Below are positions 309 to 31,192 of a stretch of DNA of 64,000 nt, piece after piece. The stretch lies in the NCBI GenBank assembly GCA_964429135.1, contig CAYSAU010000004.1, positions 31,499 through 95,498 of the forward strand, given 5' to 3'. The DNA comes from an uncultured Prolixibacteraceae bacterium. GTDB taxonomy: Bacteria; Bacteroidota; Bacteroidia; Bacteroidales; FEN-979. Position numbers and translations under genes: made by a program. Position 1 is the stretch's first letter; every line of letters starts with the position of its first letter. The notes beneath the pieces are model-generated. The model was given only the letters and a program-made list of their open reading frames with translations. It searched no databases and was not told the origin of the DNA.

Positions 309-761
309 TTAATTCGTGATATAAAGCATCACCCCGTCATAGATGGCTTGATATTGCTTAAGCGGAAAATGAGAAGGACCGGCATAGGGAGTTCCATCTG
401 TCATGATAAATTTTGAGCCACAAATAGGACAGGTGCAGGTGATACTTGATTCATCCACCCTGATTTGAGCTCCCGTTACCAATGGATCAAAAGGGCAGGC
501 ACGTTCAAAAGCCACAAATTCATTGACAGACATGCGGTAGATCAGGATGCCCTGGTAGCCTCCATAAACAGTTTCCCAGCCTCCGACAGCATTCAGATGA
601 ATATACTCCGTGGAGTTTGGATTGATCTGAAAGTTGACATAAACATAAGGAATCTCAGGAGCCTGTTCTTCTTTTTTACAGGATAAAAAGAAGCATGCTA
701 AGACCGCAATGATATATATTGGCTTCACGGCCGTATTTTTTTTTGCATTTTCATACCACAA
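309..761 (-). CDS. Hypothetical lipoprotein with Rieske-fold-like, Cys-only metal-site pattern
   Basis: 150-aa ORF with a lipoprotein-type signal (IIAVLACFFLSC). The C-terminal half has CPF-x18-CTCPIC, which resembles Rieske spacing (CxH...CxxH) but has no His ligands. Confidence 0.6.
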   Translation of the reverse strand: MWYENAKKNTAVKPIYIIAVLACFFLSCKKEEQAPEIPYVYVNFQINPNSTEYIHLNAVGGWETVYGGYQGILIYRMSVNEFVAFERACPFDPLVTGAQIRVDESSITCTCPICGSKFIMTDGTPYAGPSHFPLKQYQAIYDGVMLYITN

Positions 762-817: not shown

Positions 818-1081
818 ATGTATCTATTCAAAAATCTGGCAGCTAAAATATGGGTGATCACCTTAATAACCTTTGTTCCTTTTGCTTATGGTTTTACTCC
901 GCAAAAAGCCAAGACCAATCAAAAACAAATTGAGCGGGAAAGGGAAAAGAAAAAAAAACAGGAACAAAAAAAGTATGATGCTGGGATTAAAAGACATCAA
1001 CGGATGCAATCCAAAGAAACAAGGGAACGGATGAAACAAACCAAAAAGGAATCGAAAAAAGCAACTCCTATACGACCCTGA
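818..1081 (+). CDS. Small hypothetical protein: one N-terminal hydrophobic helix and a Lys/Arg/Glu-rich tail
   Basis: 87-aa ORF and the only ORF in an otherwise non-coding gap. It has an N-terminal TM-like segment (IWVITLITFVPFAYGF) followed by a highly charged tail. It could be a chance product of A-rich DNA. Confidence 0.35.
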   Translation: MYLFKNLAAKIWVITLITFVPFAYGFTPQKAKTNQKQIEREREKKKKQEQKKYDAGIKRHQRMQSKETRERMKQTKKESKKATPIRP

Positions 1082-1169
1082 GACCGAGATTTTACCCGAA
1101 ATTTTAATAAAATGAACGATCGCATTTGCTTAGTCATATAATAGTGTGAATCATAATTTAGAATGGTTA

Positions 1170-1177
1170 TATATTTG
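1170..1177 (+). promoter_or_regulatory. Candidate Bacteroidota -7 promoter box (TATATTTG)
   Basis: Matches the TAnnTTTG consensus and lies in a 190-nt AT-rich gap about 97 nt upstream of the ATG at 1274. The -33 element is not convincing. Confidence 0.35.
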
Positions 1178-1273
1178 TACAGTGATTTAAAAATTTTTGA
1201 ATTTAGTTTTAAATAATTATTACTTTTACGACCTTTTTACTGCGCAATTTAATCTAACATAAAATTATATGGT

Positions 1274-4200
1274 ATGTTAAGACATTTACTGTTAACTATT
1301 GGATTAGTACTAGCAGCAAACGTGTTAGTATTCTCACAAACCGGGTCTGGAACCCTTAAAGGGAAAATTACAGATAAAATAACGAAGGAACCCATCGCTT
1401 TTGCAAATATTGTCGCTGAAGTGGGTGGTGTTCAGGTAGGTGGAGCTACTACTGATTTTGACGGCAATTTTCAGATTAAACCGGTTCCTCCCGGAAAAAT
1501 AGATTTAAAGGCAAGTTATGTTGGTTATAAACCATACATGGTCAAAGGAATTGTGGTAACTCCGGATAAAATCACATTCCAGAATGTCGAACTGGAAATG
1601 TCAACCACTAACCTGACCGAAATTGAAGTTGTTGATTATAAGGTGCCTCTTATTTCCAAAGACCAGACTACTTCTGGGGGTACTGTTACTTCTGATGAAA
1701 TTTCCAAAATGGCCAATAAATCAGCTTCTGCCGTTGCCACGACAGTAGGGGGTGTGACGACTGATGCCAATGGGAATATCACGAGTATGCGTGGTCAGCG
1801 TTCTACAGGTACGGTTTATTACATTGACGGGATGCGCGTGGTTGGAGGAAATGCATTGCCCCAGTCAGCCATCGAACAGGTTGAAGTGATCCTTGGGGGA
1901 ACTCCTGCTGCTTATGGAGATGCCACGGGTGGTATCATCAGTGTTACAACCAAAGGCCCTTCAAGGGAATTTTCAGGAGGGATTGACTTACAGACTTCCC
2001 AATACCTCGATGCTTTTGGCTATAACCGCCTGGGATTGAATTTCACGGGACCCCTCATTTCCAAGAAAGACACGCTTCGTGGCACCAAGACTCCCATCAT
2101 GGGCTTCTTTATCGCTGGTGATCTTATTTATCAGAAAGATGGCGCTCCAGCTGCATTTCCCCTTTATAAGGTTAAAGATGAGAAACTTGATTTCCTGAAA
2201 ACCAATCCCTTACGTCAGTATGGTCAAAGCCAGGCCGTTTTCTATAATGCCGAGTTTCTTACGTATAATGATATGGAAAAAACCAAACACACCCTGAATA
2301 GTGATGGTTATAATATCAATGTTTCCGGTAAACTTGATTTCCGTATCTCTCCTACCATTAATGTCTCTTTGGGCGGTACTTTCCAATGGTATGACCAGAA
2401 TAACTTCTCTTTTGGAAATTCTCTGCTTAACTGGAATTACAACTCGCATTCAAGTGGTTATACCTGGCGTGTAAACGGACGCTTCACCCAGCGCTTCCCC
2501 ACGGCTGCCGATAATAAATCCTTTGTTAAAAATATTTATTATTCCATCGGGGCCGACTTCACCCGCAGCGTGGCCAAAACAGAAGATCCTTGGCATAAAG
2601 ACAATCTGTTCCAATATTCCTATGTGGGCAGTTTTGCTACCCATACCATCAGGGCCTATACTCCTGAAATGTCTTATGATTCAGTGGCCAAAAAGTGGGC
2701 TCATCTGCAAAACGGAACCCGCGATACCATCGTTCTTTTCAATCCTTCCAATGTTAATCCGGAATCTTCAAATCTGACTTCTCAGTATTACAGTTTCTTC
2801 GATGATCCCACCGGACATTATGAAAACATCAGCCAGATCATCGCCGGTAAGGGACTTGTGAACGGTATGGAACCAGATGCCCCCTATAGCATGTGGACTA
2901 ATATCGGAAACCGTTCCAACGGTTATGCTAAAAGCACAAGTGATCAGATTGCAGTGAATGCATCCTTTGCTGCCGATTTTGGCCATCATGAAATCCAATT
3001 GGGGTTGCAGTATCAGCAACGTAAATCATCTGCCTATAATTTCGGAGGTGCCTCATTATTGTGGGAAACGATGAGAGGGCTCACCAATGCACAACTTCAG
3101 GATTTAGATCTTGCAAATCCCCAGGAAGTATACAGGGATGGTGTATTTATGGATACCATCAATTATTTCCGTAAATACGTTCCCTTGTTACAACGTAATT
3201 TCGATATCAACCTGCGTAAAAAGCTGGGTTTACCTGTTGACGGTACCGACTGGATTGACCTGTTTTCCTATGATTTTGGAAAGAATACGATCAATTATTA
3301 TGACAAATATATGCAATTGCATACCATTTCAATTGATCAGCAGATTTTTTCTGTAGATATGTTTAGCGCTGATGAATTATTGAATAATGGGGCCCCCCTT
3401 GTCGGCTATGCCGGATATGATTATATGGGAAATAAGATAAAAGGGCGTCCGAGCTTTGACGATTTCTTCACTGCCCGTGATGCTGCTGGGAATCTGACCC
3501 GACCCATTGGCGCTTATGAACCCATTTATATGGCGGGATATATCCAGGATAAATTCGCATTTAAAGACCTGATTTTCAATATTGGTTTACGTGTCGACCG
3601 CTTTGATGCCAACCAGATGGTATTGAAAGATCCTTATCTGTTCTATCCAGCATATACAGCCAGTGAAGTTAAAATTTTAAACGGCCAGAATGTTTATCAT
3701 CCTTCTGGCATCGGGAGTGATTATGTGGTTTATGTTGATGATGCGAACAATCCAACCTCCATCACAGGTTACCGTAGTAATAATAACTGGTACAATAAAG
3801 AAGGCAGCCCGGTTACCGACCCTAGAATCATTGACCCCAAAGGCGTGAAACCCTATCTCATTCCCGGATACAATAGTATTTCCCCTATCGTATTCAAGGA
3901 TTATGAGCCACAAACCAACTTTATGCCTCGTATTTCTTTCTCCTTCCCTATTTCGGATGATGCTTTGTTTTATGCCCATTATGACATTCTGACCCAGCGC
4001 CCTTCCTCAGCGGAAATTCAAATTTCCCCGGTTGCTTATTATTTTATTGGGGTGACAGGAAGTTCAGGTACGCTCAATAACCCAAACCTGAAACCTGAAA
4101 AAACCATTGATTATGAGTTGGGATTTCAACAGAAAATTAACAACGCATCCTCTCTGAAATTATCCGTTTTCTATCGTGAAATGCGTGACCAGATTCAGCA

Positions 4201-4981
4201 ATATCGATTATCCGGTGCTTATCCCAAAACGTATTATTCTTATACGAACATTGACTTTGGCACTGTCAAAGGCTTAACCCTGACCTATGATCTAAGAAGG
4301 ACAAGCAATGCCCGGGTTCGTTTTAACTATACCCTTCAGTTCGCCGATGGAACCGGTTCAGATCCCAATGCAGCCTCCACTATCGTCCGCTCTGACCAAC
4401 CTAACCTCCGTACCTTGAATCCATTGAATTTTGACCGTCGTCACCAGTTCAATATCAGCATTGACTACCGTTGGGGCAGTGGAAAAGATTATAACGGACC
4501 AGTTATCAACCGTAAAAAAAGCGGAAAATCTCCCGTACAGTTTCTCTCTAATTTTGGAGCAAACCTGACCATAACGGGTGGATCCGGAACGCCTTATACG
4601 AAATCAAGCAAGATCATGCCTTATGGTCAGATGGGACCCATCAAAGGCTCTGTGAACGGTGCCCGCTTACCTTGGCAGTTCCTGATCAATGGACGTCTTG
4701 ATAAAGACTTCAACTTTGCCCTGAATAAAAGAAATATGGGAACCATTAATGTTTATCTTGAAGTCAACAATATCCTGAATACCAAAAATGTTACATACCT
4801 ATATCCAGCCACCGGTGATCCGAGTGATGACGGATATCTTTCCGCACCTGAATACCAGAATGCCATTAGCCAACAGGTTGACCCCCAGGCATACCGGGAT
4901 TTATATTCTATTCAGATGAATAGTCCTTACAATTTCAGTTCGCCGCGTACAATTCGTCTGGGTGTTATGTTTAATTTCTAA
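1274..4981 (+). CDS. Oversized TonB-dependent-receptor-like outer membrane protein (CarboxypepD_reg-like domain + plug + beta-barrel)
   Basis: 1235 aa with a signal peptide. The N-terminal segment GTLKGKITDKITKEPIAFANIV...TDFDGNFQIKPVPPGKIDLKASYVGYKP is CarboxypepD_reg-like. A plug-like region follows (SMRGQRSTGTVYYIDGMRV...GDATGGIISVTTK). The rest is a long barrel ending in the aromatic terminus RLGVMFNF. Confidence 0.85.
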   Translation: MLRHLLLTIGLVLAANVLVFSQTGSGTLKGKITDKITKEPIAFANIVAEVGGVQVGGATTDFDGNFQIKPVPPGKIDLKASYVGYKPYMVKGIVVTPDKITFQNVELEMSTTNLTEIEVVDYKVPLISKDQTTSGGTVTSDEISKMANKSASAVATTVGGVTTDANGNITSMRGQRSTGTVYYIDGMRVVGGNALPQSAIEQVEVILGGTPAAYGDATGGIISVTTKGPSREFSGGIDLQTSQYLDAFGYNRLGLNFTGPLISKKDTLRGTKTPIMGFFIAGDLIYQKDGAPAAFPLYKVKDEKLDFLKTNPLRQYGQSQAVFYNAEFLTYNDMEKTKHTLNSDGYNINVSGKLDFRISPTINVSLGGTFQWYDQNNFSFGNSLLNWNYNSHSSGYTWRVNGRFTQRFPTAADNKSFVKNIYYSIGADFTRSVAKTEDPWHKDNLFQYSYVGSFATHTIRAYTPEMSYDSVAKKWAHLQNGTRDTIVLFNPSNVNPESSNLTSQYYSFFDDPTGHYENISQIIAGKGLVNGMEPDAPYSMWTNIGNRSNGYAKSTSDQIAVNASFAADFGHHEIQLGLQYQQRKSSAYNFGGASLLWETMRGLTNAQLQDLDLANPQEVYRDGVFMDTINYFRKYVPLLQRNFDINLRKKLGLPVDGTDWIDLFSYDFGKNTINYYDKYMQLHTISIDQQIFSVDMFSADELLNNGAPLVGYAGYDYMGNKIKGRPSFDDFFTARDAAGNLTRPIGAYEPIYMAGYIQDKFAFKDLIFNIGLRVDRFDANQMVLKDPYLFYPAYTASEVKILNGQNVYHPSGIGSDYVVYVDDANNPTSITGYRSNNNWYNKEGSPVTDPRIIDPKGVKPYLIPGYNSISPIVFKDYEPQTNFMPRISFSFPISDDALFYAHYDILTQRPSSAEIQISPVAYYFIGVTGSSGTLNNPNLKPEKTIDYELGFQQKINNASSLKLSVFYREMRDQIQQYRLSGAYPKTYYSYTNIDFGTVKGLTLTYDLRRTSNARVRFNYTLQFADGTGSDPNAASTIVRSDQPNLRTLNPLNFDRRHQFNISIDYRWGSGKDYNGPVINRKKSGKSPVQFLSNFGANLTITGGSGTPYTKSSKIMPYGQMGPIKGSVNGARLPWQFLINGRLDKDFNFALNKRNMGTINVYLEVNNILNTKNVTYLYPATGDPSDDGYLSAPEYQNAISQQVDPQAYRDLYSIQMNSPYNFSSPRTIRLGVMFNF

Positions 4982-5037
4982 AAGTGAAGGCTATGGTTAA
5001 GAGAAATAATATTGCTATCGTTAAAAACAATGCGACT

Positions 5038-8000
5038 ATGAAAAATATACTTCGCTATTTTGTGACGGCACTCTGCTGTATGTTGATCATTAATTCCGTT
5101 TTTGCAGAGGAATTTCACAAGCTTAGTGGTACCAAAAGCACAGGAACCATTAAACAAACGGCGGCCGGATGCGAATCAGGGTCCAACTATAAATACCTTG
5201 ACATTAACAATGTCAGAACCCTGATGTACTCTTATGGGAATGGATGGTTCTTGGAAAATGCCGAGTATGAAATTCCAAAGGGATCACGTAAAATGTCGAT
5301 GTTCTCTTTCTCCTTATGGGTTGGTGGAATCGATATCAATAATAACCTTAAACTTGCGGCATACCGTTATGGTCAGGGACCAACAACCGCCTCGGCACAC
5401 ACTAAAAATGATTTCTGGCCCGGGCCTTTGACCGTAGATGGCACCGCAGCCGTTGATGCTGAAACCTGCTCCAAATTCGACAAGCTTTTCCCAATAACCC
5501 GTGCGGAAGTTCAGGAATTTATTGCCTATAATGAAAACAAGTCGGAGTTTCCCAGCTATCAGATTCCTCAATCCATCTTGGAATGGCCAGCACATGGAAA
5601 TACTTCCAAAGGACAGGCCCGTTACCTTGCTCCCTTTATGGATGTTGACCATGATGGTTTCTATGATCCCCAAAAAGGGGACTACCCTTATTATGATTTG
5701 TCTAATAAGCTATGCCCGATGAATCGTAAACCCGGTGATACTGCCTGGGCCAAAGTCAGGAACGGTGAACCCGATGACACCCTTGGAATCCTTGTGGACC
5801 AGGTGCTGAAGGGTGACCAGACCCTCTGGAGTGTATATAATGACAAAGGAAATTTCCACTCTGAAACCCAAGGAGAGCCGATCGGAATGGAAATACGTGC
5901 CCAATACTTCGCGTTTGCGACCAATGACGAAATCAATAACATGACATTTTATTCTTATGAATTGGTAAACCGTTCAACTTATACACTGACTGGCACCTAT
6001 TTCAGTCAATGGGTTGATCCTGATCTGGGTTACGCTCAGGATGACTATGTGGGTTGTGACGTGAAACGTGGATTGGGTTATTGCTATAACGGGAAACCGG
6101 TGGACGGAACCGGACAGGTTGAAGCTTATGGGGCTCACCCGCCAGCCATCGGGGTTGACTTTTTCCAGGGACCTTATATGGATCCCGATAAGAGGGATAA
6201 CCCTAAATTTACCGGAGATTGTTCCATTATTACCAGCGAATATCCTCTGGATCAGATGGCTATTAACGGTGTCAATTTTGGCGATGGTATTGTGGACAAT
6301 GAACGTTTTGGAATGCGCCGCTTTGTTTATCATAACAATAATCTTTCAGGAGTTCCTGCTTATATGCAGGATCCTGATTATGCCCCTCAGTATTATCAAT
6401 TTCTGAGAGGTATTTGGAAAGATGGTTCAAAAATGCAGTATGGTGGCAATGCCCATGTTTCAGCAGGTGGTTATGGCCCCGCTTGCGATTTTATGTTTCC
6501 GAATGATTCTGATCCCTGCGACTGGGGTACGGGAGGACAACCACCCAACGGGCCGAAGATCTGGACTGAAGAAACAGCAAAAAATAATCCTTCCGATCGT
6601 CGTTTTATGCAATCTGCCGGACCTTTTACCTTGCAACCGGGTGCATGTAACTATATTACGGTGGGTATTCCATGGGCACGATCAATTTCAGGAACACCAT
6701 GGGAATCAGTAAAATTATTGCAGATAGTTGATGATAAATGTCAGACCCTATTTGATAATTGCTTTGCCGTCCTTAACGGTCCTAATGCCCCGGATATCGC
6801 GATCGAAGAAATGGATAAACAGTTGATCCTTTATATTTCTAATCGAAAAAGTAATGATGCCGGTAATAATTTTGGAGAAAAATATGTTGAATACGATCCG
6901 AATATTCCTAATCCTGAATCTTTACCTCATAATCAACGCAATGACTCCCTCTACCGTTTTGAAGGATATCAGATCTTTCAGGTGAAAGATGCTACGGTTT
7001 CAGCCGCTGATATTGATGACCCAGGGAAAGCAAGGCTGGTTGCCCAATGTGATATCCAGAATGGTGTGACAAAATTGGTAAACTGGTCCTATGATCAAAA
7101 TCTTGGAGGAAATGTAGGTTCTGTGATGGTGGATGGCTCAGATAAAGGGATTAAACATTCCTTTGTGATTACTGAAGACAAATTCGCCACAGGAGATGTA
7201 CGTCTGATCAACCATAAACAATATTATTATATGGCTGTGGCCTATGCTTACAATAATTATAAAACCTATAATCAAAGCGATCCCTCTGCCCTTGATGGTC
7301 AGAAACTGCCCTATCTGAGAGGCCGCAAAAATGCCAGCGGTAAACCCATACAAACCTATACGGCCATTCCGCATATTCCCCTGGCTGATGTTACTTATGC
7401 GAATTTCGGGGATGGTCCAATTATTACAAGAATTCAGGGACAGGGAAATGGAGGAATGATCATTGAAATGTCGGAGGAAACAATCGCCGAAATTTTATCA
7501 AAACCACCAGCTGACTCTGTAAAACGTACATACGGACATCCTGATTATCCGATCTCTTATAACCCGACTTATCTACAATCACAGGGTCCATTGTCGGTCA
7601 AGGTCGTTGATCCATTGAATGTCGTTAACGGAGAATATATGGTGACTTTTGATTCTATGACCCCAGCTCCGGTAAACGTGACAAGTCCATTCCAGAATTC
7701 GCTGATTAAATTTGGCAAATGGACACTGACAGATAAAAAAAGCGGAAAAGTTTATAGGGCTGATACCTCAACAATTTATCCTTATGAACAACTTCGTTTC
7801 TGGGATCAGCATGAGCAGCTTTGGGTAGATCTTGGATTGGCACTTACCATTAATCAGGTACCTTATCCAGGTGATACAAAAGATACCACCAAGGGAAATG
7901 TATATAGTGAAAACGGATTATTATGGGCTCCGGCAGCCATCTATGAAGACAGCACCAAAGTATGGTTATCAGGAGTCCCAGACTCTGACATTCCTGCTTC

Positions 8001-9345
8001 GGTAATGAATTGGATCCGGTCTGGAACCTATAAACAACTCGATGCTAACCAGAGTAATAAAAACTATGATTGGGATATGGATCAGAATAACCCCTGGGAT
8101 CCGAATAAAAATTACCAGAAAATTCAAAATGGGACCTGGGCTCCTTATTTCATGACTGCGTTTAAGAGGCAAAATTCAATGGCACCTGCAATTAATGACT
8201 ATTCAAAACGGAAAACAGCAACACTTGCTGATATTGCCAGCGTGGATATTGTGATTACTCCGGATAAAACCAAATGGACCCGTTGTGTTGTTGTGGAAAT
8301 GTGTCCCGACACTAACCTCGCACAAGGGAAAGCCAGACAATACTATCTCCGGAATGCCCCCTCGGTGAATGTGGACGGGGAAGCTGGCATCAGCAGTGCA
8401 GACCCGATGTTCAATTCAAATTATATCAGTTCAACCGGAATGGGCTGGTTCCCTGGTTATGCCATTAACCTTGAAACCGGAGAACGTCTGAATATCATGT
8501 TCGCGGAAAACTCATGGCTGGTTGCCGATAATGGACGGGATATGATCTGGAATCCGAGTTCGAGGGTCGTGGATGCTGCCGGGAGTCCGGTATTTGGGGG
8601 TCAGCATTACGTTTATATCATGAATCATATCAATATGGAGGGAGGAAATAATAAATTCTTTTTCCCTGCATACGATGCTGGTGCTTACCTGAGATCTCAC
8701 CTGAAAAAAACACATTCTGATGCTCAGGCTACCATTGACTGGGGTACTTATTGTTATGCAAGCACAATGTATACGGGAATTCCTCTTTCCATTACAGGAA
8801 AAGAATGGCTAAGCAATGCAGTGACCATAAAAATAAGAGTTACGAAACCTTACCAACGGTATTATTCTTTAGCTATACCTGACAGCCTAAAGGATACTGT
8901 GAATCGTAATTATCCTGTTTATTTATTCAACACTTCTTCCATTGCGACAAAGAAGAATAATCAGGAAAAAGCTTCCAATGATCTTAATCTGATTAATGTT
9001 GTGCCGAATCCATACTATGCTTATGATGATTATGAGAGAAATCAGCTGGATAACCGTATCAAGATCGTTAACCTGCCTTCAAAATGTACTGTGACAATCT
9101 TTGATTTGAGCGGAACATTGATCCGGCAGTTTATCGTGGATAAAACAGGTATTGATATGCCAAGATCTTCAACGGCAGGAATAAATACAGATGCTAAAAC
9201 ATCCATCGATTGGGATCTTAAGAATTTTGCCGGAATTCCTATTTCAGGAGGCGTTTACTTGATTCATGTCAAAGCAGACAACCTGGGTGAACGAACGCTC
9301 AAATGGTTTGGAATCTTACGCCCGGTTGACTTGAATTCACTGTAA
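5038..9345 (+). CDS. Very large secreted protein with T9SS C-terminal sorting domain; no recognisable catalytic domain
   Basis: The ORF opens at 4984 (GTG), but the ATG at 5038 gives a canonical signal peptide (MKNILRYFVTALCCMLIINSVFA/EE). The last ~110 aa (VVPNPYYAYDD...CTVTIFDLSGTLIRQF...WDLKNFAGIPISGGVYLIHVKA...) look like a type-A Por secretion tail. A DxDxDG calcium-loop motif (DVDHDG) is present. Confidence 0.85.
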   Translation: MKNILRYFVTALCCMLIINSVFAEEFHKLSGTKSTGTIKQTAAGCESGSNYKYLDINNVRTLMYSYGNGWFLENAEYEIPKGSRKMSMFSFSLWVGGIDINNNLKLAAYRYGQGPTTASAHTKNDFWPGPLTVDGTAAVDAETCSKFDKLFPITRAEVQEFIAYNENKSEFPSYQIPQSILEWPAHGNTSKGQARYLAPFMDVDHDGFYDPQKGDYPYYDLSNKLCPMNRKPGDTAWAKVRNGEPDDTLGILVDQVLKGDQTLWSVYNDKGNFHSETQGEPIGMEIRAQYFAFATNDEINNMTFYSYELVNRSTYTLTGTYFSQWVDPDLGYAQDDYVGCDVKRGLGYCYNGKPVDGTGQVEAYGAHPPAIGVDFFQGPYMDPDKRDNPKFTGDCSIITSEYPLDQMAINGVNFGDGIVDNERFGMRRFVYHNNNLSGVPAYMQDPDYAPQYYQFLRGIWKDGSKMQYGGNAHVSAGGYGPACDFMFPNDSDPCDWGTGGQPPNGPKIWTEETAKNNPSDRRFMQSAGPFTLQPGACNYITVGIPWARSISGTPWESVKLLQIVDDKCQTLFDNCFAVLNGPNAPDIAIEEMDKQLILYISNRKSNDAGNNFGEKYVEYDPNIPNPESLPHNQRNDSLYRFEGYQIFQVKDATVSAADIDDPGKARLVAQCDIQNGVTKLVNWSYDQNLGGNVGSVMVDGSDKGIKHSFVITEDKFATGDVRLINHKQYYYMAVAYAYNNYKTYNQSDPSALDGQKLPYLRGRKNASGKPIQTYTAIPHIPLADVTYANFGDGPIITRIQGQGNGGMIIEMSEETIAEILSKPPADSVKRTYGHPDYPISYNPTYLQSQGPLSVKVVDPLNVVNGEYMVTFDSMTPAPVNVTSPFQNSLIKFGKWTLTDKKSGKVYRADTSTIYPYEQLRFWDQHEQLWVDLGLALTINQVPYPGDTKDTTKGNVYSENGLLWAPAAIYEDSTKVWLSGVPDSDIPASVMNWIRSGTYKQLDANQSNKNYDWDMDQNNPWDPNKNYQKIQNGTWAPYFMTAFKRQNSMAPAINDYSKRKTATLADIASVDIVITPDKTKWTRCVVVEMCPDTNLAQGKARQYYLRNAPSVNVDGEAGISSADPMFNSNYISSTGMGWFPGYAINLETGERLNIMFAENSWLVADNGRDMIWNPSSRVVDAAGSPVFGGQHYVYIMNHINMEGGNNKFFFPAYDAGAYLRSHLKKTHSDAQATIDWGTYCYASTMYTGIPLSITGKEWLSNAVTIKIRVTKPYQRYYSLAIPDSLKDTVNRNYPVYLFNTSSIATKKNNQEKASNDLNLINVVPNPYYAYDDYERNQLDNRIKIVNLPSKCTVTIFDLSGTLIRQFIVDKTGIDMPRSSTAGINTDAKTSIDWDLKNFAGIPISGGVYLIHVKADNLGERTLKWFGILRPVDLNSL

Positions 9346-9363
9346 TGGCCAACATGATAAAAA

Positions 9364-10467
9364 ATGAAAACAACGAAAAATTTCAGGATTATGAAAAATA
9401 TCTATAGCTGCTTATTGGCAATATTCTTGATGGGATTGGTCATTATTCCCCTGGGCAATGCGACAGCAGGAAATAAAGATCGATCGGGGCAGGCTGGAGC
9501 CTCTGAATTGCTCATCAACCCGTGGGCGAGAAGTTCAGGCTGGGGTTCCGTGGGTACTTCATGCACACAAGGACTGGAGGCAATCTTTACCAATGTGGCA
9601 GGAACGGGTTTTACCAAGGGAACAGAAATAATATTTTCCTATACCAACTGGTTACAGGGTTCAGGTGTTAATATCATGTCCTTTGGTCTGAGCCAGAAAC
9701 TTGGTTCCAGCGGTGGAGTATTGACTGCAGCCGTTATGTCTATGTCATTTGGTGAAATTGATATTACGACCACCAACTCCCCGGAAGGAGGCATTGGAAC
9801 GTTTAAACCCAGTTACCTAAATATCAATCTGGCTTATGCCAAAGCATTCTCAAACAGCATTTATGGAGGCTTAGCCATCAAGATCATTTCGGAATCCATC
9901 TCGGATGCCAGTGCTATCGGCATTGCCCTTGATGCAGGGATACAATATGTGACGGGTGAAAAAGACCAAATCAAGTTTGGAATTGCTTTGAAAAACGTTG
10001 GGGCCCCGATGAAGTTCAACGGAGATGGACTGTCTTTTCGTGGGATTATTCCCGGACACGGAAATGATAATGACTTATTTACTGTTGAACAACGCTCTGC
10101 CCGTTATGAATTACCGGCAACTTTACGCATTGGCGCTTCCTATGATTTCCTGATCGGAGAAATGAACCGCATCACTCTGGCTGGTAACTTTACTTCCAAC
10201 TCTTTTACAAAAGATCAATTTAGCCTGGGCTTGGAATATGCTCTCAAATATTATCTCCAGATACGTGCTGGTTATACTTACCAGGGAGGAATGTTCAACA
10301 GCAGTGTTGCAGAAAGAGGCACGGTTTTTACAGGTCCAAGTGCTGGTTTTACCGTGTCTGTTCCGTTTAATAAGGAAAAAGAAACAGGAATCGCTATCGA
10401 TTATTCTTACAGGGCAACCAATCCTTTCTCAGGAACACATAGTATTGGTTTAAAACTTAACTTTTAA
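9364..10467 (+). CDS. PorV/PorQ-family-like outer membrane beta-barrel
   Basis: 367 aa (alternative ATG at 9391) with a signal peptide. The N-terminal motif GQAGASELLINPWARSSGWGSVG resembles the conserved start of PorV/PorQ/FadL-like barrels. The sequence has alternating beta-strand character and ends in an aromatic residue (GLKLNF). Confidence 0.6.
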   Translation: MKTTKNFRIMKNIYSCLLAIFLMGLVIIPLGNATAGNKDRSGQAGASELLINPWARSSGWGSVGTSCTQGLEAIFTNVAGTGFTKGTEIIFSYTNWLQGSGVNIMSFGLSQKLGSSGGVLTAAVMSMSFGEIDITTTNSPEGGIGTFKPSYLNINLAYAKAFSNSIYGGLAIKIISESISDASAIGIALDAGIQYVTGEKDQIKFGIALKNVGAPMKFNGDGLSFRGIIPGHGNDNDLFTVEQRSARYELPATLRIGASYDFLIGEMNRITLAGNFTSNSFTKDQFSLGLEYALKYYLQIRAGYTYQGGMFNSSVAERGTVFTGPSAGFTVSVPFNKEKETGIAIDYSYRATNPFSGTHSIGLKLNF

Positions 10468-10511
10468 TCCTTCGGGTAGAAGATTTCATAACCTAGTTAT
10501 TTTATTGGTAT

Positions 10512-10537
10512 AAGGACCCTTTCAAAAAGGGTCTTTT
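10512..10537 (+). terminator. Rho-independent terminator after the three-gene OM operon
   Basis: Stem GACCCTTT (10515-10522) pairs with AAAGGGTC (10526-10533) around a 3-nt loop and is followed by TTTT (10534-10537). It sits about 45 nt after the stop at 10467. Confidence 0.7.
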
Positions 10538-10572
10538 GCCTTATTATAAAAATCATTTTTAACTTTTTTGTA

Positions 10573-11046
10573 ATGTCGGAGCTTAAGTATTATACCCAAG
10601 AAGGCTTAAATAAGCTTAAAGACGAATTGAACCAGTTGATCACCGAGGAACGTCCGAATATAAGCAAACAGATCGCGGAAGCAAGAGATAAAGGTGATTT
10701 GTCGGAAAATGCTGAATATCATGCAGCCAAAGAAGCCCAGGGCTTGCTTGAAATAAAAATTTCAAAACTACAGACCATGGTCAGCAATGCCCGACTAATC
10801 GATGAATCAAAACTTGATTTTACTAAGGTGTTGATTTTTTCAACGATCAAATTGAAAAATACGCAAAATGGAAGCATGGTGACTTATACCCTCGTGCCTG
10901 AAAATGAAGCCAATGTGAAAACAGGCAAAATTTCGGTGAATTCACCTATTGCAAAAGGGATACTTGGGAAAACAATCGGCGATAAAGTGGAAATTGTCGT
11001 ACCTGCAGGAAAAGTATTTTTAGAAATTATTGAAATATCACGATAG
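10573..11046 (+). CDS. greA: Transcription elongation factor GreA
   Basis: 157 aa with an N-terminal coiled-coil carrying GDLSENAEYHAAKE and a typical C-terminal globular domain. Confidence 0.95.
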   Translation: MSELKYYTQEGLNKLKDELNQLITEERPNISKQIAEARDKGDLSENAEYHAAKEAQGLLEIKISKLQTMVSNARLIDESKLDFTKVLIFSTIKLKNTQNGSMVTYTLVPENEANVKTGKISVNSPIAKGILGKTIGDKVEIVVPAGKVFLEIIEISR

Positions 11047-11445
11047 ATGTCAAGTATTTTTACAAAAATCGTAAAGGGAGAAATTCCGTGTTATAAAATC
11101 GCTGAGGATGAGAACTATCTCGCGTTTCTGGATATTAATCCGTTGCAGGAAGGTCACACTTTAGTCATACCCAAAAAGGAAATTGATTATATCTTCGACA
11201 TAGATGACGAACTTTTTGCCGGATTGTGGAATTTCGCCAAAAAGGTTGGAAAAGCAATTGAAACCGTTGTTCCTTGTCAACGGATGGGAATTACCGTCAT
11301 CGGGCTTGAAGTTCCTCATGCCCATATCCATTTGATCCCCCTGAAAAGTATGTATGACATGGATTTTAAAAGACCAAAATTGTCCTTTTCACCTGAAGAA
11401 TTTAAAATCATTGCTGAAAAAATATCCGCTGAAATAAAAGGGTGA
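11047..11445 (+). CDS. HIT (histidine triad) family protein
   Basis: 132 aa with the HxHxHxx motif (HAHIHLIP). It starts immediately after the greA stop. Confidence 0.9.
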   Translation: MSSIFTKIVKGEIPCYKIAEDENYLAFLDINPLQEGHTLVIPKKEIDYIFDIDDELFAGLWNFAKKVGKAIETVVPCQRMGITVIGLEVPHAHIHLIPLKSMYDMDFKRPKLSFSPEEFKIIAEKISAEIKG

Positions 11446-11482
11446 TTTTTTCGGGAAAATGATAAAACAGTAAGAGCTACTG

Positions 11483-13384
11483 TTAATAGGCTCGGATGTT
11501 CTGTCCCTCAATATAATTAAGAAAAGCTCTGTTGACTACTTTATTCCCCCCGGGAGTTGGATAATCTCCTGTAAAATACCAATCTCCTTTATGATCTGGA
11601 CAGGCTGCATGAAGATCCTCAATCGTTTGGAAAATAATCTGAACCTTGGCGCGACAACCGTCTGGCGTTAGTAATTCTGTTATTTTTTCCGAAATTCTTT
11701 GCGGAGAGAAGGGGGCATAAATTTCTCTGACAAAGTTGACAATTTTTTCTTTGTCATATTTTTCCTGCAGCTTGGATTTCTTATAAACATCATTGATGAT
11801 GTGTTCCTGATGCGTTTCTTTCAATAATGCAATGGCTGCTTTAAAAGCAATAAAATCAGTTAGTTTTGACATGTCTATTCCGTAACAATCGGGATAACGG
11901 ATTTGAGGAGCGGAAGAAACGATAATAATTTTCTTGGGACCGAGACGGTCCAGGATGCGTAAAATGCTTTGTTTTAATGTCGTTCCCCTGACAATAGAAT
12001 CATCCAGGACCACGAGGGTATCTATTCCCTGTCGGATACTTCCATAAGTGATGTCATAAACATGGGTAGCGAGATCATCCCTTTGGGAGTCCTGGGTGAT
12101 AAAAGTCCTTAATTTTAAATCTTTAACAGCAACCTTCTCAACCCTTGGCTTAAATTGAAAGATGACATTTAACTTTTCCGCTGTAAGTTCATTCCTCGCA
12201 TGGAATATTTTTTCAATCTTAATCCGGTCGCAGAAATTGGCAACTTCTTCGATCAGGCCATAATAAGCATCAATAGCAGTGTTGGGAATGTAAGAAAATA
12301 CGGTGTTTTCAAGGTCATAATCAATTGACTGAAGGATGGGTTGGGCTAATAATTTTCCCAGTTGTTTTCTCTCCTGATAGATTTCAATATCACTTCCTCT
12401 AGAAAAATAAATACGTTCAAAAGAACAGGATCTTTTTTCTCTGGGCTTACAAAAAGGCAGTTCACTGATTTTTCCGTTCTTTTTGATAATGAGGGCATGT
12501 CCTGGTTTGATTTCATGAATGAGTTCATGCCCTACCCTGAAAGCAGTTTGAATGACGGGTCGCTCTGATGCTACGACTACAACCTCGTCATTACGGTAAA
12601 AGTAAGCAGGCCTAATCCCTGAAGGATCGCGCATGGTAAAAGCATCCCCATGTCCAAAAAGGCCTGTAATCACATAACCCCCATCCCATGTTTTGGCTGA
12701 GCGTTTTAAAATCTTCTGAATATTCAGATGGCTGGCAATCTGGAAAGTAATTTCTCTTTTCTGATAACCTTGTAATTTGAATTTTCGATATAATTCTTCA
12801 TTTTCTTCATCCAGAAAATGTCCGATTTTTTCAAGAATGGTGATGGTGTCGGATGTCTCCACCGGATATTGACCCAGATCGATCAATTTTTCAAACAGTT
12901 CATCCACATTGGTCAGGTTGAAATTCCCGGCTAGAACTAAGTTCTTCGTCATCCAGTTATTCTCTCTTACGAAAGGATGAAGACTCAGGAGGGTATTTTT
13001 TCCATAAGTGCCATATCTCAAATGCCCAAGGTAAATCTCTCCCAAAAGATCTACATGGTATTTCAACCAGTCGACATCTTTTAACCGCTGTGGGTAACGG
13101 TCTTCAATATCTTTAAGCTTCAGGGCTATGTTCGAAAAAATATCCCGGATTGGGGCATCCGCATTGGAACGTATCCTATTAATAAAACGATTCCCTGGTT
13201 CTAGATCAAATTTGATGACAGCAACTCCCGCCCCATCCTGTCCCCGGTTATGCTGTTTTTGCATGAGGAGGTGAAGTTTGTTCAGACCGTAAAAAGCAGT
13301 TCCGTATTTGGCAAGATAGAACTCAAGCGGTTTAAGGAGACGTATTAAAGCAATGCCACATTCATGATGGATAAAATCGCTCAT
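11483..13384 (-). CDS. purF: Amidophosphoribosyltransferase (long Bacteroidota-type)
   Basis: 633 aa with an N-terminal class-II amidotransferase Cys (HHECGIALI) and the PRPP-binding motif VVLDDSIVRGTT. Confidence 0.9.
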   Translation of the reverse strand: MSDFIHHECGIALIRLLKPLEFYLAKYGTAFYGLNKLHLLMQKQHNRGQDGAGVAVIKFDLEPGNRFINRIRSNADAPIRDIFSNIALKLKDIEDRYPQRLKDVDWLKYHVDLLGEIYLGHLRYGTYGKNTLLSLHPFVRENNWMTKNLVLAGNFNLTNVDELFEKLIDLGQYPVETSDTITILEKIGHFLDEENEELYRKFKLQGYQKREITFQIASHLNIQKILKRSAKTWDGGYVITGLFGHGDAFTMRDPSGIRPAYFYRNDEVVVVASERPVIQTAFRVGHELIHEIKPGHALIIKKNGKISELPFCKPREKRSCSFERIYFSRGSDIEIYQERKQLGKLLAQPILQSIDYDLENTVFSYIPNTAIDAYYGLIEEVANFCDRIKIEKIFHARNELTAEKLNVIFQFKPRVEKVAVKDLKLRTFITQDSQRDDLATHVYDITYGSIRQGIDTLVVLDDSIVRGTTLKQSILRILDRLGPKKIIIVSSAPQIRYPDCYGIDMSKLTDFIAFKAAIALLKETHQEHIINDVYKKSKLQEKYDKEKIVNFVREIYAPFSPQRISEKITELLTPDGCRAKVQIIFQTIEDLHAACPDHKGDWYFTGDYPTPGGNKVVNRAFLNYIEGQNIRAY

Positions 13385-13407
13385 GGAGTAAGCTCTATGA
13401 TGAAATG

Positions 13408-13415
13408 CAAAGATA
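13408..13415 (-). promoter_or_regulatory. Candidate -7 box TATCTTTG for purF
   Basis: The reverse complement of caaagata matches TAnnTTTG. It lies 24 nt upstream of the purF ATG (13384). Confidence 0.45.
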
Positions 13416-13444
13416 GGGAATATTTAATGTGAAATTCCTTTTGT

Positions 13445-15625
13445 CTATCTACCTGAACAATGCTTTTCAATAAGTTTTAGTGCCTTTGTGCTTCCCATGT
13501 CAGCACCTCTCCGCCAATCACGACATGCACCATCCAGGTCCTTCAATTGAAATTTCACAGATCCTCTTCCCATATATGCATCTCCATAACTCGGATTAAG
13601 CCTTATTGCGCTGTCAAAATCACTTAGGGATGCTGAAAATTGTTTTAAGGAAAATGCGCGGATGATAGCTCTATTATTGTAAGCTTTATAATATCCCGGA
13701 TTTAATTTTATGGCCATAGTGAATTCAGCGATCTCAGCAGAAAACTTTCCTTCAATGTAGTTTTGGTTTCCGTTATTAAAATGGATAATTGCCTTTTCTG
13801 AATTTTCCCTTGTAATTCCCGGAGGGTAAATTAAAGCCGGATTTATTGCATTCTCATCGGTAATCCTAGATATTTCTGACAAAGCAGCAAAAAGAGCAGG
13901 GTTTTTCCCAGCGGATTTCTGCAGAGCATGCAGAAAAAAAATTTTTGCTGTTGCGTAATCTCTGGTTTGGAAATAAAAAGAACCGATATTTTGTAGGGCA
14001 TTGATTGAGTAATCATATTTTTTATAAAATCCCTCCAGCCATGTAATGGGGGAAGAATTCTCCCCTCGATTTAAAATATGCATGATTTCTGTCGAGTCAA
14101 GCCAGGTGGAAAGGTTAAACTTGGATAAGATCCCGAATGTCGCGGGAGCTCCCATGGTGGGTTTATATCCCTGACGGGCATAAACGACTGCAATCCCATC
14201 AATATATATCAGTCTCCATTCAGGATGCTGTAAAAGCTGTTCTGTCCATGGATAATAAACTTGATAATTATATATTATAAGATCGGGTCTGTATTTCTCT
14301 ATTAATTTTTGTAATTCCCCATTCCAGCTGTTATAAACCTCCTGATAAAGATCTTCCCTGATCACTTCCAACCTGGCATCAATAAAAACAGGTTGGGGGA
14401 TGCTCCAGGATAACCATCCACCAATACAAAGACTATTGATGATTTTGCCAGAAAGATGATTTTGCTTCAGGAATGCGGAGACCAAAACAGGTTGTTGATA
14501 AGTATCAATGCCCATCCCTGTTTTATTGTAAGATTTATTGGAAACATAGTAAGCATTGGTATAAATCCTGGCTGAAATACCCAGGGTCACGATTGTTAAT
14601 AATATAATTAGCAAGGATTCTATGATATGAAAGCTTTTTCTAAAAGTATTCCGAAAACGATACCGGATTTTTTCATTGACTTCTTTCAAAGCAGTACTGA
14701 GGATTGGAAAAACGATGATAATGAATAAAGGTATATTGCGAATTGCAATTAGCGAAAGGTATAAAAACAATAGAATGAGTATGAACTCATGTGGTTTTCT
14801 TTTCTTCCAGGTCAAAACACTTAGGAAGAGAGTGAAAAAGCTAAAAATGAGGAAAAGATATTCTTTAACGGTAAACGTTTTCATATGGAATATTGAGATG
14901 AACTCCCTGATGTGTTGATTGAAGATGTTATCATGTTCAAACCGGGTGAACAATTCAAGAGGGAAAGTTAACCCTTTGAAAAAATATGGATTGCATAAAC
15001 AAATAAACATCGATATCACCATCCACAACAAGAAGGCTCGATCTAATGTTCTTTTTTTAATGGAAACAGAGATGAAATAAGCAAATAATAAGATCAAACC
15101 TAAAATAAACAAAGCCTGTGTGTTACACCAAAGTAACATGATTCCGGGAATGAAAAAAAGATAATTTTTACGGGTATAGTAGTATTTATCCAGAATGATT
15201 AAAACCACGGAAATATATATAAAGGTCAGCATTTCCGGTCTAAGCATGATACGAGGCTCAATAATTAAATACGCCGATAATAATAGAACAGAAGTTATTG
15301 GAGCGGGAATACCGTACATACGGTTTCTCAGTAAAAGCAAACACAGAAGAGAAAGGCTTAAAAATGTAACCAATAAATTTAATGCCGTATATCCGCCTGA
15401 CCGATAGAAAGAAAATACGAAAACCTGGAATAACCAATGAAGATCGATATATTCATGATTACTTACCGTGTATGTGGAAATGTCATGACGAGGAATTTCC
15501 CTGTTTTCCAGTATCCATTTCCCTGCTTTCAGGTGAAAACCCAGATCGGGATCTGACAACATTCTGAAAGAAAGTAAGAAGACAAGAATGATTATGGCTG
15601 TGAAAGGGATGTACCACTTTGACAT
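13445..15625 (-). CDS. Polytopic membrane protein with C-terminal TPR repeats (possible GT-C-type glycosyltransferase)
   Basis: 726 aa. The first ~400 aa contain about 10 or more hydrophobic helices, and the C-terminus has TPR-like repeats (YNNRAIIRAF...AIRLNPSYGDAYMGRG). The function is inferred from architecture only. Confidence 0.7.
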   Translation of the reverse strand: MSKWYIPFTAIIILVFLLSFRMLSDPDLGFHLKAGKWILENREIPRHDISTYTVSNHEYIDLHWLFQVFVFSFYRSGGYTALNLLVTFLSLSLLCLLLLRNRMYGIPAPITSVLLLSAYLIIEPRIMLRPEMLTFIYISVVLIILDKYYYTRKNYLFFIPGIMLLWCNTQALFILGLILLFAYFISVSIKKRTLDRAFLLWMVISMFICLCNPYFFKGLTFPLELFTRFEHDNIFNQHIREFISIFHMKTFTVKEYLFLIFSFFTLFLSVLTWKKRKPHEFILILLFLYLSLIAIRNIPLFIIIVFPILSTALKEVNEKIRYRFRNTFRKSFHIIESLLIILLTIVTLGISARIYTNAYYVSNKSYNKTGMGIDTYQQPVLVSAFLKQNHLSGKIINSLCIGGWLSWSIPQPVFIDARLEVIREDLYQEVYNSWNGELQKLIEKYRPDLIIYNYQVYYPWTEQLLQHPEWRLIYIDGIAVVYARQGYKPTMGAPATFGILSKFNLSTWLDSTEIMHILNRGENSSPITWLEGFYKKYDYSINALQNIGSFYFQTRDYATAKIFFLHALQKSAGKNPALFAALSEISRITDENAINPALIYPPGITRENSEKAIIHFNNGNQNYIEGKFSAEIAEFTMAIKLNPGYYKAYNNRAIIRAFSLKQFSASLSDFDSAIRLNPSYGDAYMGRGSVKFQLKDLDGACRDWRRGADMGSTKALKLIEKHCSGR

Positions 15626-15692: not shown

Positions 15693-16727
15693 ATGATTGA
15701 TAGGGTTGAACCTGCTTATTTCCTGAAACAAATTACCAACTTTCTCATTCTCGATGTAAGGTCGCCCATGGAATACCAGCAGGGGCATATTCCCGGATCA
15801 GTGAATATTCCACTTTTTTCCGATTCTGATAGAGCAACAATTGGTACTTTGTACCAAAAACTCGGGAAGGGACCAGCCATCCTCCGGGGTTTGGATATTT
15901 GTCTGCCTAAAATTAAGGATTACCTCAAAACACTATCAAAAATCAGCAATCAGCGAAAAATATTGATTTATTGCTGGCGGGGTGGAATGAGAAGTACCCT
16001 TATAGCTGAGGTGTTCTCTAAAGCCGGTCATCCAATTGTTATTTTAAACGGTGGATATCAGGCATACCGCAAGCAAATCCGCAGCGGTTTTTCAAATAAA
16101 GCGGTTATGTTGGTCTTGGGAGGCTTTACTGGAAGCGGAAAAACTCAACTGTTGCAACACATAGCTGATCAGGGAGAACAGGTCATTGACCTGGAGAAAT
16201 CCGCCCGTCACAAAGGCTCTGTTTTTGGTGCTCTGGGACAAGCTTCACAACCGACCAACCAGCAATTTGAAAACGATCTCTATCAGCAATGGTCGGAATT
16301 TGATTTCTCCCGACCAATCTGGATTGAAGATGAAAGCCGGAGGATGGGGAAACTTGACCTGCCGGATCCCTTAGTCCGACAAATTTCAGAAGCTATCCTG
16401 ATAGATCTGGAAGTTCCGGTATCCGTTAGAGTAAAGCGATTGGTAAGGGAATATGCAGATTTTGACAAGCTGCTTCTCAAAGAAGCCATCGTCAAACTAA
16501 AAGAAAGATTAGGAAACAGGAATACAAAAAAAGCGCTTTTCGAGCTGGAATCGGAACATTTTGAAGCAGTAGCAGAAATTCTTCTGGCTTATTATGATAA
16601 GACTTACAGGTTTACTAGGAAAAAGAGAGTTCAAGATAAAATCATTCAAGTACAATTATCATCGGAAGACATGGAAGAAGAGGCAAAGAAATTGATTCTC
16701 CTGGCAAGAAAAATTTTATTTTTATGA
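15693..16727 (+). CDS. selU: tRNA 2-selenouridine synthase
   Basis: 344 aa with a rhodanese domain whose active-site loop is CWRGGMRS, followed by the P-loop GFTGSGKT. This is the SelU/MnmH architecture. Confidence 0.85.
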   Translation: MIDRVEPAYFLKQITNFLILDVRSPMEYQQGHIPGSVNIPLFSDSDRATIGTLYQKLGKGPAILRGLDICLPKIKDYLKTLSKISNQRKILIYCWRGGMRSTLIAEVFSKAGHPIVILNGGYQAYRKQIRSGFSNKAVMLVLGGFTGSGKTQLLQHIADQGEQVIDLEKSARHKGSVFGALGQASQPTNQQFENDLYQQWSEFDFSRPIWIEDESRRMGKLDLPDPLVRQISEAILIDLEVPVSVRVKRLVREYADFDKLLLKEAIVKLKERLGNRNTKKALFELESEHFEAVAEILLAYYDKTYRFTRKKRVQDKIIQVQLSSEDMEEEAKKLILLARKILFL

Positions 16728-19014: not shown

Positions 19015-19659
19015 ATGCAGGCAATGATAATGGATAGTTCTTTGGTGGACATTCTGGAAAGGGTTCGGGAACTTTTTTTCAAATACGGGGTTAGGAGTAT
19101 ATCGATGGATGATATATGCCGGGATATTGGCATTTCAAAAAAGAAACTCTATCGGTTTGTCCATAGTAAAAATGAATTGGTTGAGAAATTGCTTGAACTG
19201 GAGCGAGAAAATTTTGAAATTATTTTTGAAAAAAACAATTTTGATGGGGTCAACGCAATTGATGTCTTATTGATAGTCAGTCATGACGTGGGAGATCGTT
19301 TCAAAGATGTAAGCCCTTCCATGACTTTCGACCTGAAAAAATATTACCCGGAGATTTATCATCATCATGTCGAAAGCAGAATTGAGTTCGTTTACCAGAA
19401 TATCAAGCTGAATATCCAGAAAGGGATCAGACAGGGTATGTATCGTGATGATTTAAGTGTCGAACTGGTAGCACGGTTGTATATTCGTCGTTTAATTGAT
19501 TTGCATAACCCTGAATTTTTTCCCGCGGATAAGTTTTCATTTCAAACCCTCTTCGATGTCATGTTCGATAATTTCATCCGTGGAATTGCCAATGAAGAAG
19601 GTACAAAGTACTATGAAAAGCAGAAACGGAAAGTGAATTTAAAAAAATTTTATCAATGA
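19015..19659 (+). CDS. TetR/AcrR family transcriptional regulator
   Basis: N-terminal HTH (SISMDDICRDIGISKKKLYRFVHSKNELV). The ORF track start is 19000; in-frame ATGs occur at 19015, 19024 and 19030. Confidence 0.85.
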   Translation: MQAMIMDSSLVDILERVRELFFKYGVRSISMDDICRDIGISKKKLYRFVHSKNELVEKLLELERENFEIIFEKNNFDGVNAIDVLLIVSHDVGDRFKDVSPSMTFDLKKYYPEIYHHHVESRIEFVYQNIKLNIQKGIRQGMYRDDLSVELVARLYIRRLIDLHNPEFFPADKFSFQTLFDVMFDNFIRGIANEEGTKYYEKQKRKVNLKKFYQ

Positions 19660-24392: not shown

Positions 24393-24402
24393 GCTTTATT
24401 CA

Positions 24403-25521: not shown

Positions 25522-25542
25522 AGAAGAAATGTTTTTGGAGCG

Positions 25543-25550
25543 CAAAGATA
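25543..25550 (-). promoter_or_regulatory. Candidate -7 box TATCTTTG for MFP-RND operon
   Basis: The reverse complement of caaagata lies 22 nt upstream of the ATG at 25521. Confidence 0.45.
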
Positions 25551-31168: not shown

Positions 31169-31192
31169 GTCTTTAGAATTGGTTGTTATCAA

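Follow-up and report, generated by a model that had tools for sequence, protein, structure and literature searches.

A conserved three-gene outer-membrane cassette of Bacteroidota that joins a TonB-dependent transporter to a putative type IX secretion cargo and a PorV/PorQ-family barrel

What might a TonB-dependent transporter, a giant exported protein and a second outer-membrane barrel do together? The question is raised by three adjacent genes, here called genes 1, 2 and 3, that lie in a 64,000-nucleotide stretch of DNA from an uncultured Prolixibacteraceae bacterium (GenBank assembly GCA_964429135.1, contig CAYSAU010000004.1, positions 31,499 to 95,498), the whole of which is referred to below as the window. 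A preliminary description of this DNA read gene 1 as a SusC-type barrel, gene 2 as an orphan type IX secretion system (T9SS) cargo and gene 3 as a dedicated PorV/PorQ-like barrel. We followed it up with profile searches, structure prediction and a comparison of gene neighborhoods. The three genes form one conserved operon-like unit, and we consider the chances to be about even that they encode a single outer-membrane TonB-dependent uptake device in which a T9SS-delivered, barrel-anchored surface partner takes the place of a lipoprotein.

Conservation and distribution of the gene order

Loci were pooled from 80 species-representative Bacteroidales genomes, Chitinophagales isolates and 80 metagenome contigs (marine metagenomes among the sources), the contigs having been fetched with an alignment of more distant members of the gene 2 family. 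The Bacteroidales genomes (Prolixibacteraceae, Lentimicrobiaceae, Draconibacterium and others) showed the order gene 1-gene 2-gene 3-greA-HIT wherever the contig sufficed, and two isolates of Chitinophagales, Taibaiella soli and Polluticoccus soli, shared the five-gene order, with cassette proteins approximately 33-41% identical to those of the window. The order was kept in the 80 metagenome contigs as well, where gene 2 shows 36%-55% identity to the window protein. Every locus that contained all three genes (143/143) had them collinear and adjacent, with median gaps of 48 and 44 nucleotides; seven loci flagged as odd were second paralogs or split alignments. Gene 1 identity across the loci ranged from 37 to 86%, and the cassette was usually present in a single copy. 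Synteny in other genomes, which the preliminary description had named as a test of its reading, thus held at each informative locus, and the possibility that the arrangement is peculiar to one genome was contradicted by its span across Bacteroidota orders and by homologs in Rhodothermota. The cassette is ancient and very widespread in Bacteroidota and their relatives.

The downstream boundary of the unit was also conserved. The hairpin after gene 3 has a folding energy of -17.9 kcal/mol (z = -4.26), and of 129 related loci 121 had a terminator-like hairpin with a T-tract in the gap that separates gene 3 from greA, compared with 7 of 129 shuffled controls, so that the intrinsic terminator proposed earlier for this position was upheld. 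Because the hairpin between gene 3 and greA is conserved, the three genes can be regarded as a transcription unit distinct from greA. In the closer Bacteroidales loci (L002-L037) and in the window, the terminator sequence itself is kept, with a core of GGACCC...GGGTC and flanking A/T runs.

A tblastn search of a plasmid collection returned one informative record, the Rhodothermus marinus plasmid pRMAR01 (NC_013502.1; locus L163), in which RMAR_RS14120-14110 encode homologs of all three proteins in the same gene order: a TonB-dependent receptor of 897 residues (E 4e-28), a hypothetical protein of 1132 residues that matches gene 2 in both its core (E 5e-13) and its C-terminal domain (CTD; E 3e-10), and a PorV/PorQ family protein (216 bits). 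The plasmid transporter and gene 2 homolog are much shorter than those of the window, identities are 21-31%, and the plasmid triplet stands in an accessory context whereas the window cassette lies beside greA-HIT. Each gene of the plasmid triplet has its homolog in the window, and the cassette travels as one unit. On pRMAR01 (2711-15190) an FG-GAP-like protein whose type A CTD exceeds the cut-off (TIGR04183, 27 bits) comes before the triplet; after it come a protein of the peptidoglycan recognition family and a serine hydrolase resembling class-A beta-lactamases, neighbors that hint at a cell-wall fragment or related substrate for the pRMAR01 copy.

Two published R. marinus loci were likened to the triplet by annotation alone. 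The alginate locus (tonB-hypA-hypB; PMC9530828) is annotated with a TonB-dependent receptor followed by a T9SS type A sorting protein and then a PorV/PorQ family protein, and in the xylan locus Rmar_1070-1073 (PMC6987092) hypothetical proteins that bear Por CTDs come after the transporter Rmar_1070; both papers leave the arrangement uninterpreted. If related, these strings tie the architecture to nutrient uptake. Apart from such incidental mentions in figures or tables of the two Rhodothermus papers, we found no description of the triplet in the searchable full-text literature (subscription-only articles being outside its scope), which agrees with the earlier statement that the module is undescribed.

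The three gene products

Gene 1 encodes a true TonB-dependent transporter, as judged by hidden Markov models (HMMs) and by its predicted fold, and this transporter is not of the SusC/RagA type. The domain string assigned to it previously (CarboxypepD_reg, plug and barrel) was recovered in full, with PF13620, PF13715 (CarboxypepD_reg), PF07715 (Plug; 36.8 bits, cut-off 23.9) and PF00593 (TonB barrel; 69.2 bits, cut-off 27) each exceeding its Pfam cut-off; a CarboxypepD_reg N-terminal domain is common among Bacteroidota transporters. A family profile compared against the PDB matched Cir and PfeA at their plug domains (E 1e-13). The AlphaFold2 (AF2) model, which was built from a shallow alignment of sequences mostly 69-83% identical, reached a predicted local distance difference test (pLDDT) score of 69.8 and gave 175 Foldseek matches in the PDB at E < 1e-3, all to 22-strand TonB-dependent transporters; FptA was the top match (E 4e-15; target-relative template modeling [TM] score about 0.5), TM scores relative to the targets lay at about 0.45-0.58, and the BtuB-BtuG and XusA-XusB complexes were among the structural neighbors. 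The barrel is oversized, with large, confidently modeled insertions between strands. The aligned sequences keep a candidate TonB box, 'EIEVVDYKVPLI'; the conserved motif, 'E(V/I)EVVDYKVPLI', lies between the N-terminal domain and the plug, where the R. marinus homolog has 'EEVVITAQRPLV'. TIGR04056, the SusC/RagA model, had no match in gene 1 at E <= 0.01, and with a plug resembling those of Cir/PfeA-type transporters a SusC identity was ruled out; the SusC-type label of the preliminary description must be dropped, while its observation that no SusD follows the transporter stands, the downstream gene having no match to SusD or to any other Pfam or NCBIfam model.

The last ~120 residues of gene 2 are predicted to be a type-A-like T9SS CTD, the PorZ and PorU CTDs being its closest counterparts. 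When a 148-residue tail fragment was used as the query, it matched the CTD (region 663-747) of the PorZ model (E 3.9e-7, 28.9 bits), and the best PDB profile match was again the CTD of PorZ (5m11, E 1e-3). The tails of 35 diverse gene 2 relatives all matched TIGR04183 at E <= 0.01 (best E 1.5e-7) and the PorZ CTD as well (best E 3e-11), while the PorU CTD was matched by 23 of the 35; the CTD alignment shows the motifs VVPNPYY, GGVYLIHV and KWFG.LRP. Identity of gene 2 with PorU or PorZ was ruled out because only the CTD aligns: the body gave no C25 peptidase or PorU match even at E <= 10, and the full-length model NF052228 (cut-off 260) was not reached. A type B CTD cargo served by a PorP/SprF shuttle was likewise rejected, as TIGR04131 (type B CTD) had no match in gene 2 and gene 3 is not PF11751. 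Within the window clade the CTD carries a loop insertion of ~17 residues (GIDMPRSSTAGINTDAK; about 9145-9195, residues about 1370-1386) that is missing from most other aligned relatives, a comparable one occurring in metagenome locus L107. PorW/SprE (676.7 bits), PorK/GldK (591.6 bits) and PorM/GldM (330.6 bits) are encoded in the same window, 35-47 kb from the cassette, and the organism therefore has a T9SS. Open reading frames (ORFs) between and after these core genes fit PorL/GldL and PorN/GldN, by position alone.

Gene 3 encodes a PorV/PorQ-family barrel that is neither PorV nor PorQ proper. It scored 147.9 bits against the family model NF033709 (cut-off 90), while both equivalog cut-offs were missed (PorQ, NF033711, 72.6 vs 220; PorV, NF033710, 68.1 vs 250), with only the N-terminal half aligned; all Pfam matches, to PorV (PF19572) and DUF5723, were sub-threshold. 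Since gene 3 passes the family model and fails both equivalogs, it represents a third kind of PorV/PorQ barrel. The preliminary description had made membership in the PorV/PorQ rather than the FadL family a test of its reading of the 367-residue barrel, and PorV emerged as the top solved relative: a family profile matched the Flavobacterium johnsoniae PorV structures (6h3i and related entries) at E 7.9e-21 and the FadL-type TodX at 2e-4, by which a FadL identity was ruled out.

The pairing of a cargo gene with a barrel gene raises the alternative that gene 3 is a private shuttle or anchor needed for the extraction and display of gene 2, like SprF for SprB, gene 2 being an adhesin or enzyme that acts alone and gene 1 merely a co-transcribed, independent neighbor. 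The gene order speaks for this alternative, as porU-porV also places cargo before barrel, and the FN3/Ig-like beta-sandwiches in which the gene 2 model is rich are adhesin-like. The order is likewise that of type-B cargo followed by porP/sprF (PMC12618676, PMC10202324), including SprB-SprF of F. johnsoniae, where a large surface-protein gene precedes the gene for its cognate barrel, and the barrel of a type-B cargo determines both secretion and final location (PMC12618676). Unlike SprB-SprF, however, gene 2 has a type-A-like CTD, gene 3 scores as PorV/PorQ and not as PorP/SprF, and a transporter gene is joined to the unit. Gene 1 was never found apart from genes 2 and 3, either at the 143 loci or, at 26-31% identity, in the Rhodothermus homolog, the genes are separated by gaps of ~50 nucleotides, and they share a single conserved terminator. 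Because the linkage survives both divergence and relocation, chance co-transcription of gene 1 is hard to reconcile with the data, and we regard the private shuttle as improbable.

The N-terminus of gene 2, MKNILRYFVTALCCMLIINSVFA/EE, reads as a Sec signal peptide, and reading of its sequence revealed no lipobox. The body of the protein had no Pfam or NCBIfam match even at E <= 10 and no PDB sequence match. The protein is nevertheless far from the 'orphan' of the preliminary description, as it belongs to an enormous and highly conserved family: there were more than 6754 full-length homologs at 64-89% identity among the top matches, and an exhaustive comparison with representatives of 50%-identity clusters yielded 7255 clusters at E < 1e-3, of which 2052 remained at E < 1e-30. 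In an alignment of 82 sequences (the window protein and 81 others taken from the 80 species-representative loci, with two copies in some loci), 304 of 1435 positions were at least 97% conserved. The AF2 model of residues 1-1200 (pLDDT 75.8, predicted TM score 0.58) is nearly all beta. Foldseek searches of the PDB and of viral structures gave weak beta-sandwich/FN3-like matches (E >= 5e-5, TM <= 0.2) to accessory sandwiches of glycoside hydrolase (GH) 94- and GH116-type enzymes and to FN3-rich phage proteins, and at such scores a reading of gene 2 as a glycoside hydrolase or phage tail protein was ruled out. Some Bacteroidales have a second full-length paralog of gene 2 only (L035, 8001-12197; L040, 8001-12176; L042, 14087-18283; L067, 14031-17960), which sits between greA and HIT or, in L067, after gene 3. 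No second transporter or barrel was found at these loci; with gene 2 alone duplicated, one transporter/anchor set may therefore serve two surface proteins.

These properties of gene 2 also bear on a further alternative, in which it is not a SusD-type binder but a surface enzyme that processes glycans or peptides into the substrate of gene 1, like the surface glycanases of polysaccharide utilization loci. Part of the model shows a weak likeness (E 5e-5 to 1e-2) to the N-domains, which are beta-sandwiches, of GH94, GH116, GH15 and GH65-type enzymes, the invariant residues include numerous Asp, Glu, His and aromatic ones, and the annotation-matched Rhodothermus strings stand in polysaccharide loci. 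The matched region is only an accessory sandwich, however, with TM scores no higher than 0.2; the model contains no (alpha/alpha)6 or other catalytic domain, and no CAZy-type or peptidase HMM matched gene 2 even at E <= 10. Of the readings discussed here, we hold the surface enzyme to be the least probable, and a distant prospect.

A proposed uptake device and the case against it

Under the reading to which we give an about even chance, gene 1 would be the energized channel, with its plug, its barrel of ~22 strands and its TonB-box-like motif. Gene 2 would leave via Sec and then cross the outer membrane by the T9SS through its PorZ/PorU-like CTD. This CTD would probably stay uncleaved and docked in the dedicated gene 3 barrel, in the manner of PorZ on PorQ and PorU on PorV, proteins that reportedly keep their CTDs and remain bound to their respective barrels (PMC10202324). 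Docking would hold the beta-rich body of ~1300 residues at the cell surface next to gene 1, where it could capture a substrate and pass it to the transporter, or cap the transporter, and so take the role that SusD, BtuG or XusB lipoproteins have for other Bacteroidota transporters.

Each half of this arrangement has a known counterpart. As in PorZ-PorQ and PorU-PorV of Porphyromonas gingivalis, a PorV/PorQ-family barrel is matched here with a predicted export substrate of Sec and the T9SS whose tail is a putative type-A-like CTD; unlike PorU and PorZ, the gene 2 body has neither a C25 peptidase nor a match to the PorZ propeller, unlike PorV and PorQ, gene 3 misses both equivalog cut-offs, and the P. 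gingivalis pairs include no TonB-dependent transporter. As in SusC-SusD, BtuB-BtuG, XusA-XusB and the transporters with DUF4625, DUF4876 or DUF4374 lids, a transporter gene is followed by the gene of a surface partner, here a predicted one, and the adjacency is conserved. Several unrelated lipoprotein lids have been proposed for non-SusC Bacteroides transporters (bioRxiv 10.1101/2023.03.17.533168), and neither SusD nor any lid listed there is related to gene 2. In contrast to SusD and the lipoprotein lids, gene 2 is predicted to be a T9SS cargo with an anchor barrel of its own, which makes three components instead of two, and in contrast to SusC-SusD, gene 1 is outside the SusC/RagA family. 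We suggest, as a tentative view that falls somewhat short of an even chance, that the cassette is the conserved housekeeping member of an unrecognized Bacteroidota-Rhodothermota uptake class in which a T9SS-delivered capture or lid protein sits on a dedicated third type of PorV/PorQ barrel by way of an uncleaved PorZ/PorU-like CTD. With the same reserve, we picture this class as an alternative, built of three components, to SusC-SusD and the lipoprotein lids, one that would link the T9SS directly to nutrient import.

Several observations weigh against an uptake device. In the AF2 model the plug of gene 1 (~1604-1954, residues ~111-227) has a pLDDT of only ~25 despite its clear plug matches in Pfam and in the PDB profile, which may reflect the shallow alignment or a truly divergent plug. 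The gene 2 tail of the window itself scored 20.3 bits against TIGR04183, below the cut-off of 23 (E 4e-4 for the isolated tail), so that the T9SS sorting domain of the preliminary description is supported by the PorZ CTD match and by the TIGR04183 matches of relatives but not by the window's own TIGR04183 score. The gene 2 body has no recognizable catalytic or ligand-binding fold (best Foldseek E 5e-5). Type A CTD cargo is described as collected by PorV (PMC12618676), and gene 3 may therefore be the final anchor only, or not the partner of gene 2 at all; it would be a novelty for a type-A-like cargo outside the attachment complex to have a PorV/PorQ-family barrel of its own. No linked catabolic, regulatory or riboswitch element names a substrate, the conserved neighbors greA and the HIT hydrolase gene are housekeeping genes, and conservation as extreme as that of the near-invariant positions of gene 2 and of gene 1 is a more usual mark of machinery for envelope biogenesis than of proteins that scavenge nutrients.

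The main rival explanation builds on the last of these points. It holds that the three proteins form a housekeeping envelope machine, a conserved outer-membrane complex for building or maintaining some surface structure (a glycan, lipopolysaccharide or S-layer-like coat, for example) or takes part in T9SS-linked attachment, with the transporter-like barrel acting as a platform or as an export or turnover channel and not as a nutrient importer. Very strong conservation, the usual single copy, the greA and HIT neighborhood that is invariable from Bacteroidales to Chitinophagales and the lack of substrate-specific enzymes or regulators nearby would all be expected of such a machine; moreover, the nearest CTDs belong to PorZ and PorU, parts of the machinery and not ordinary cargo, and there is a precedent in BamG, a 14-stranded FadL-like barrel of the Bacteroidota BAM complex that anchors a surface protein (PMC12578637). 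Set against these features is the full transporter architecture that gene 1 retains, including the plug and the TonB-box-like motif. The plasmid location of the R. marinus triplet and the annotation-matched strings in polysaccharide loci fit accessory nutrient uptake better, and the duplication of gene 2 alone in some genomes is as expected of a specificity component. We consider the envelope machine unlikely, although less so than the private shuttle or the surface enzyme.

Locus layout, neighboring genes and implications

The positions of the cassette and of the T9SS core genes are summarized in Table 1. The three plus-strand ORFs lie where the preliminary description placed them, the second being open from a GTG at 4984 (1453 residues). 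Its preference for the ATG at 5038 was confirmed: because the homologs open at the methionine of MKNILR..., we place the start of gene 2 there, 56 nucleotides after gene 1. For gene 3, M10-K11 are conserved among homologs, and the start may therefore be the ATG at 9391 (358 residues); the second gap is 18 nucleotides, as previously given, if gene 3 starts at 9364, but 45 nucleotides if it starts at 9391. The AT-richness claimed for the region upstream of gene 1 was reproduced (GC = 0.34 over 1001-1500), whereas the promoter claimed with it was not: the full Bacteroidota-type pattern (TTTG-N-TAnnTTTG, -33/-7) had no match there, and a sigma-70 scan was at chance level. A -7-like TATATTTG was seen by eye at 1170-1177, and an Rfam scan upstream of the operon detected neither a riboswitch nor another RNA element.

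Table 1. Features of the three-gene locus and of the T9SS core region in the window
Feature	Position	Strand	Basis
AT-rich intergenic stretch 5' of gene 1, putative promoter region	1082..1273	+	base composition
Gene 1, TonB-dependent transporter, 1235 residues	1274..4981	+	Pfam, PDB profile, AF2/Foldseek
Gene 2, predicted Sec-signal, mostly-beta multi-domain surface protein, 1435 residues	5038..9345	+	homolog alignment, AF2
Gene 2 C-terminal domain, predicted type-A-like T9SS sorting domain	8989..9342	+	HMM, PDB profile
Gene 3, PorV/PorQ-family outer-membrane beta-barrel, 367 residues	9364..10467	+	NF033709, PDB profile
Intrinsic-terminator-like hairpin, 5' of greA	10507..10540	+	folding energy, conservation
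Core T9SS region ORF	44330-46999	-	HMM
Core T9SS region ORFs	52669-54036, 54100-55131, 55176-56783, 56805-57662	+	HMM or position

Upstream of gene 1 lie two small ORFs, 309-761 (minus strand, 150 residues) and 818-1081 (plus strand, 87 residues), that match no family; both are found at the same position in many Bacteroidales loci and not in Chitinophagales, where the cassette comes after genes for an rRNA adenine dimethylase and a 2-hydroxyacid dehydrogenase. Elsewhere in the window, 15693-18910 (plus strand) holds a selenium-utilization pair in which MnmH (tRNA 2-selenouridine synthase) is followed by a 728-residue fusion of a NifS/IscS-like cysteine desulfurase with SelD (selenophosphate synthetase), and 19656-25545 holds a resistance-nodulation-division (RND) efflux set in which a TolC-family protein (plus strand) is divergent from an RND permease (1125 residues) and a periplasmic adaptor (minus strand). 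Genes for tryptophanase (29795-31195, minus strand; 861 bits) and butyrate kinase (33810-34886, plus strand; 520 bits) are consistent with an anaerobic, amino-acid-fermenting Bacteroidales host.

The cassette occurs in the cultured organisms T. soli, P. soli and R. marinus, and the hypothesis of an uptake device is therefore directly testable. If it is true, genes 2 and 3 would be a third cognate pair of a type-A-like CTD protein and a barrel, beside PorU-PorV and PorZ-PorQ, and such pairs would serve outside the secretion machinery too. The cassette would also be a new way of giving a TonB-dependent transporter a surface partner, with a T9SS cargo and its anchor barrel replacing the lipoprotein, and it may explain why transporter genes of Rhodothermus polysaccharide loci precede Por-CTD proteins, beside or in place of SusCD pairs. 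Finally, a role would be provided for a very large protein family (thousands of clusters, ~1400 residues, without a Pfam or NCBIfam model) whose members rank with the best-conserved outer-membrane proteins of environmental Bacteroidales and Chitinophagales.

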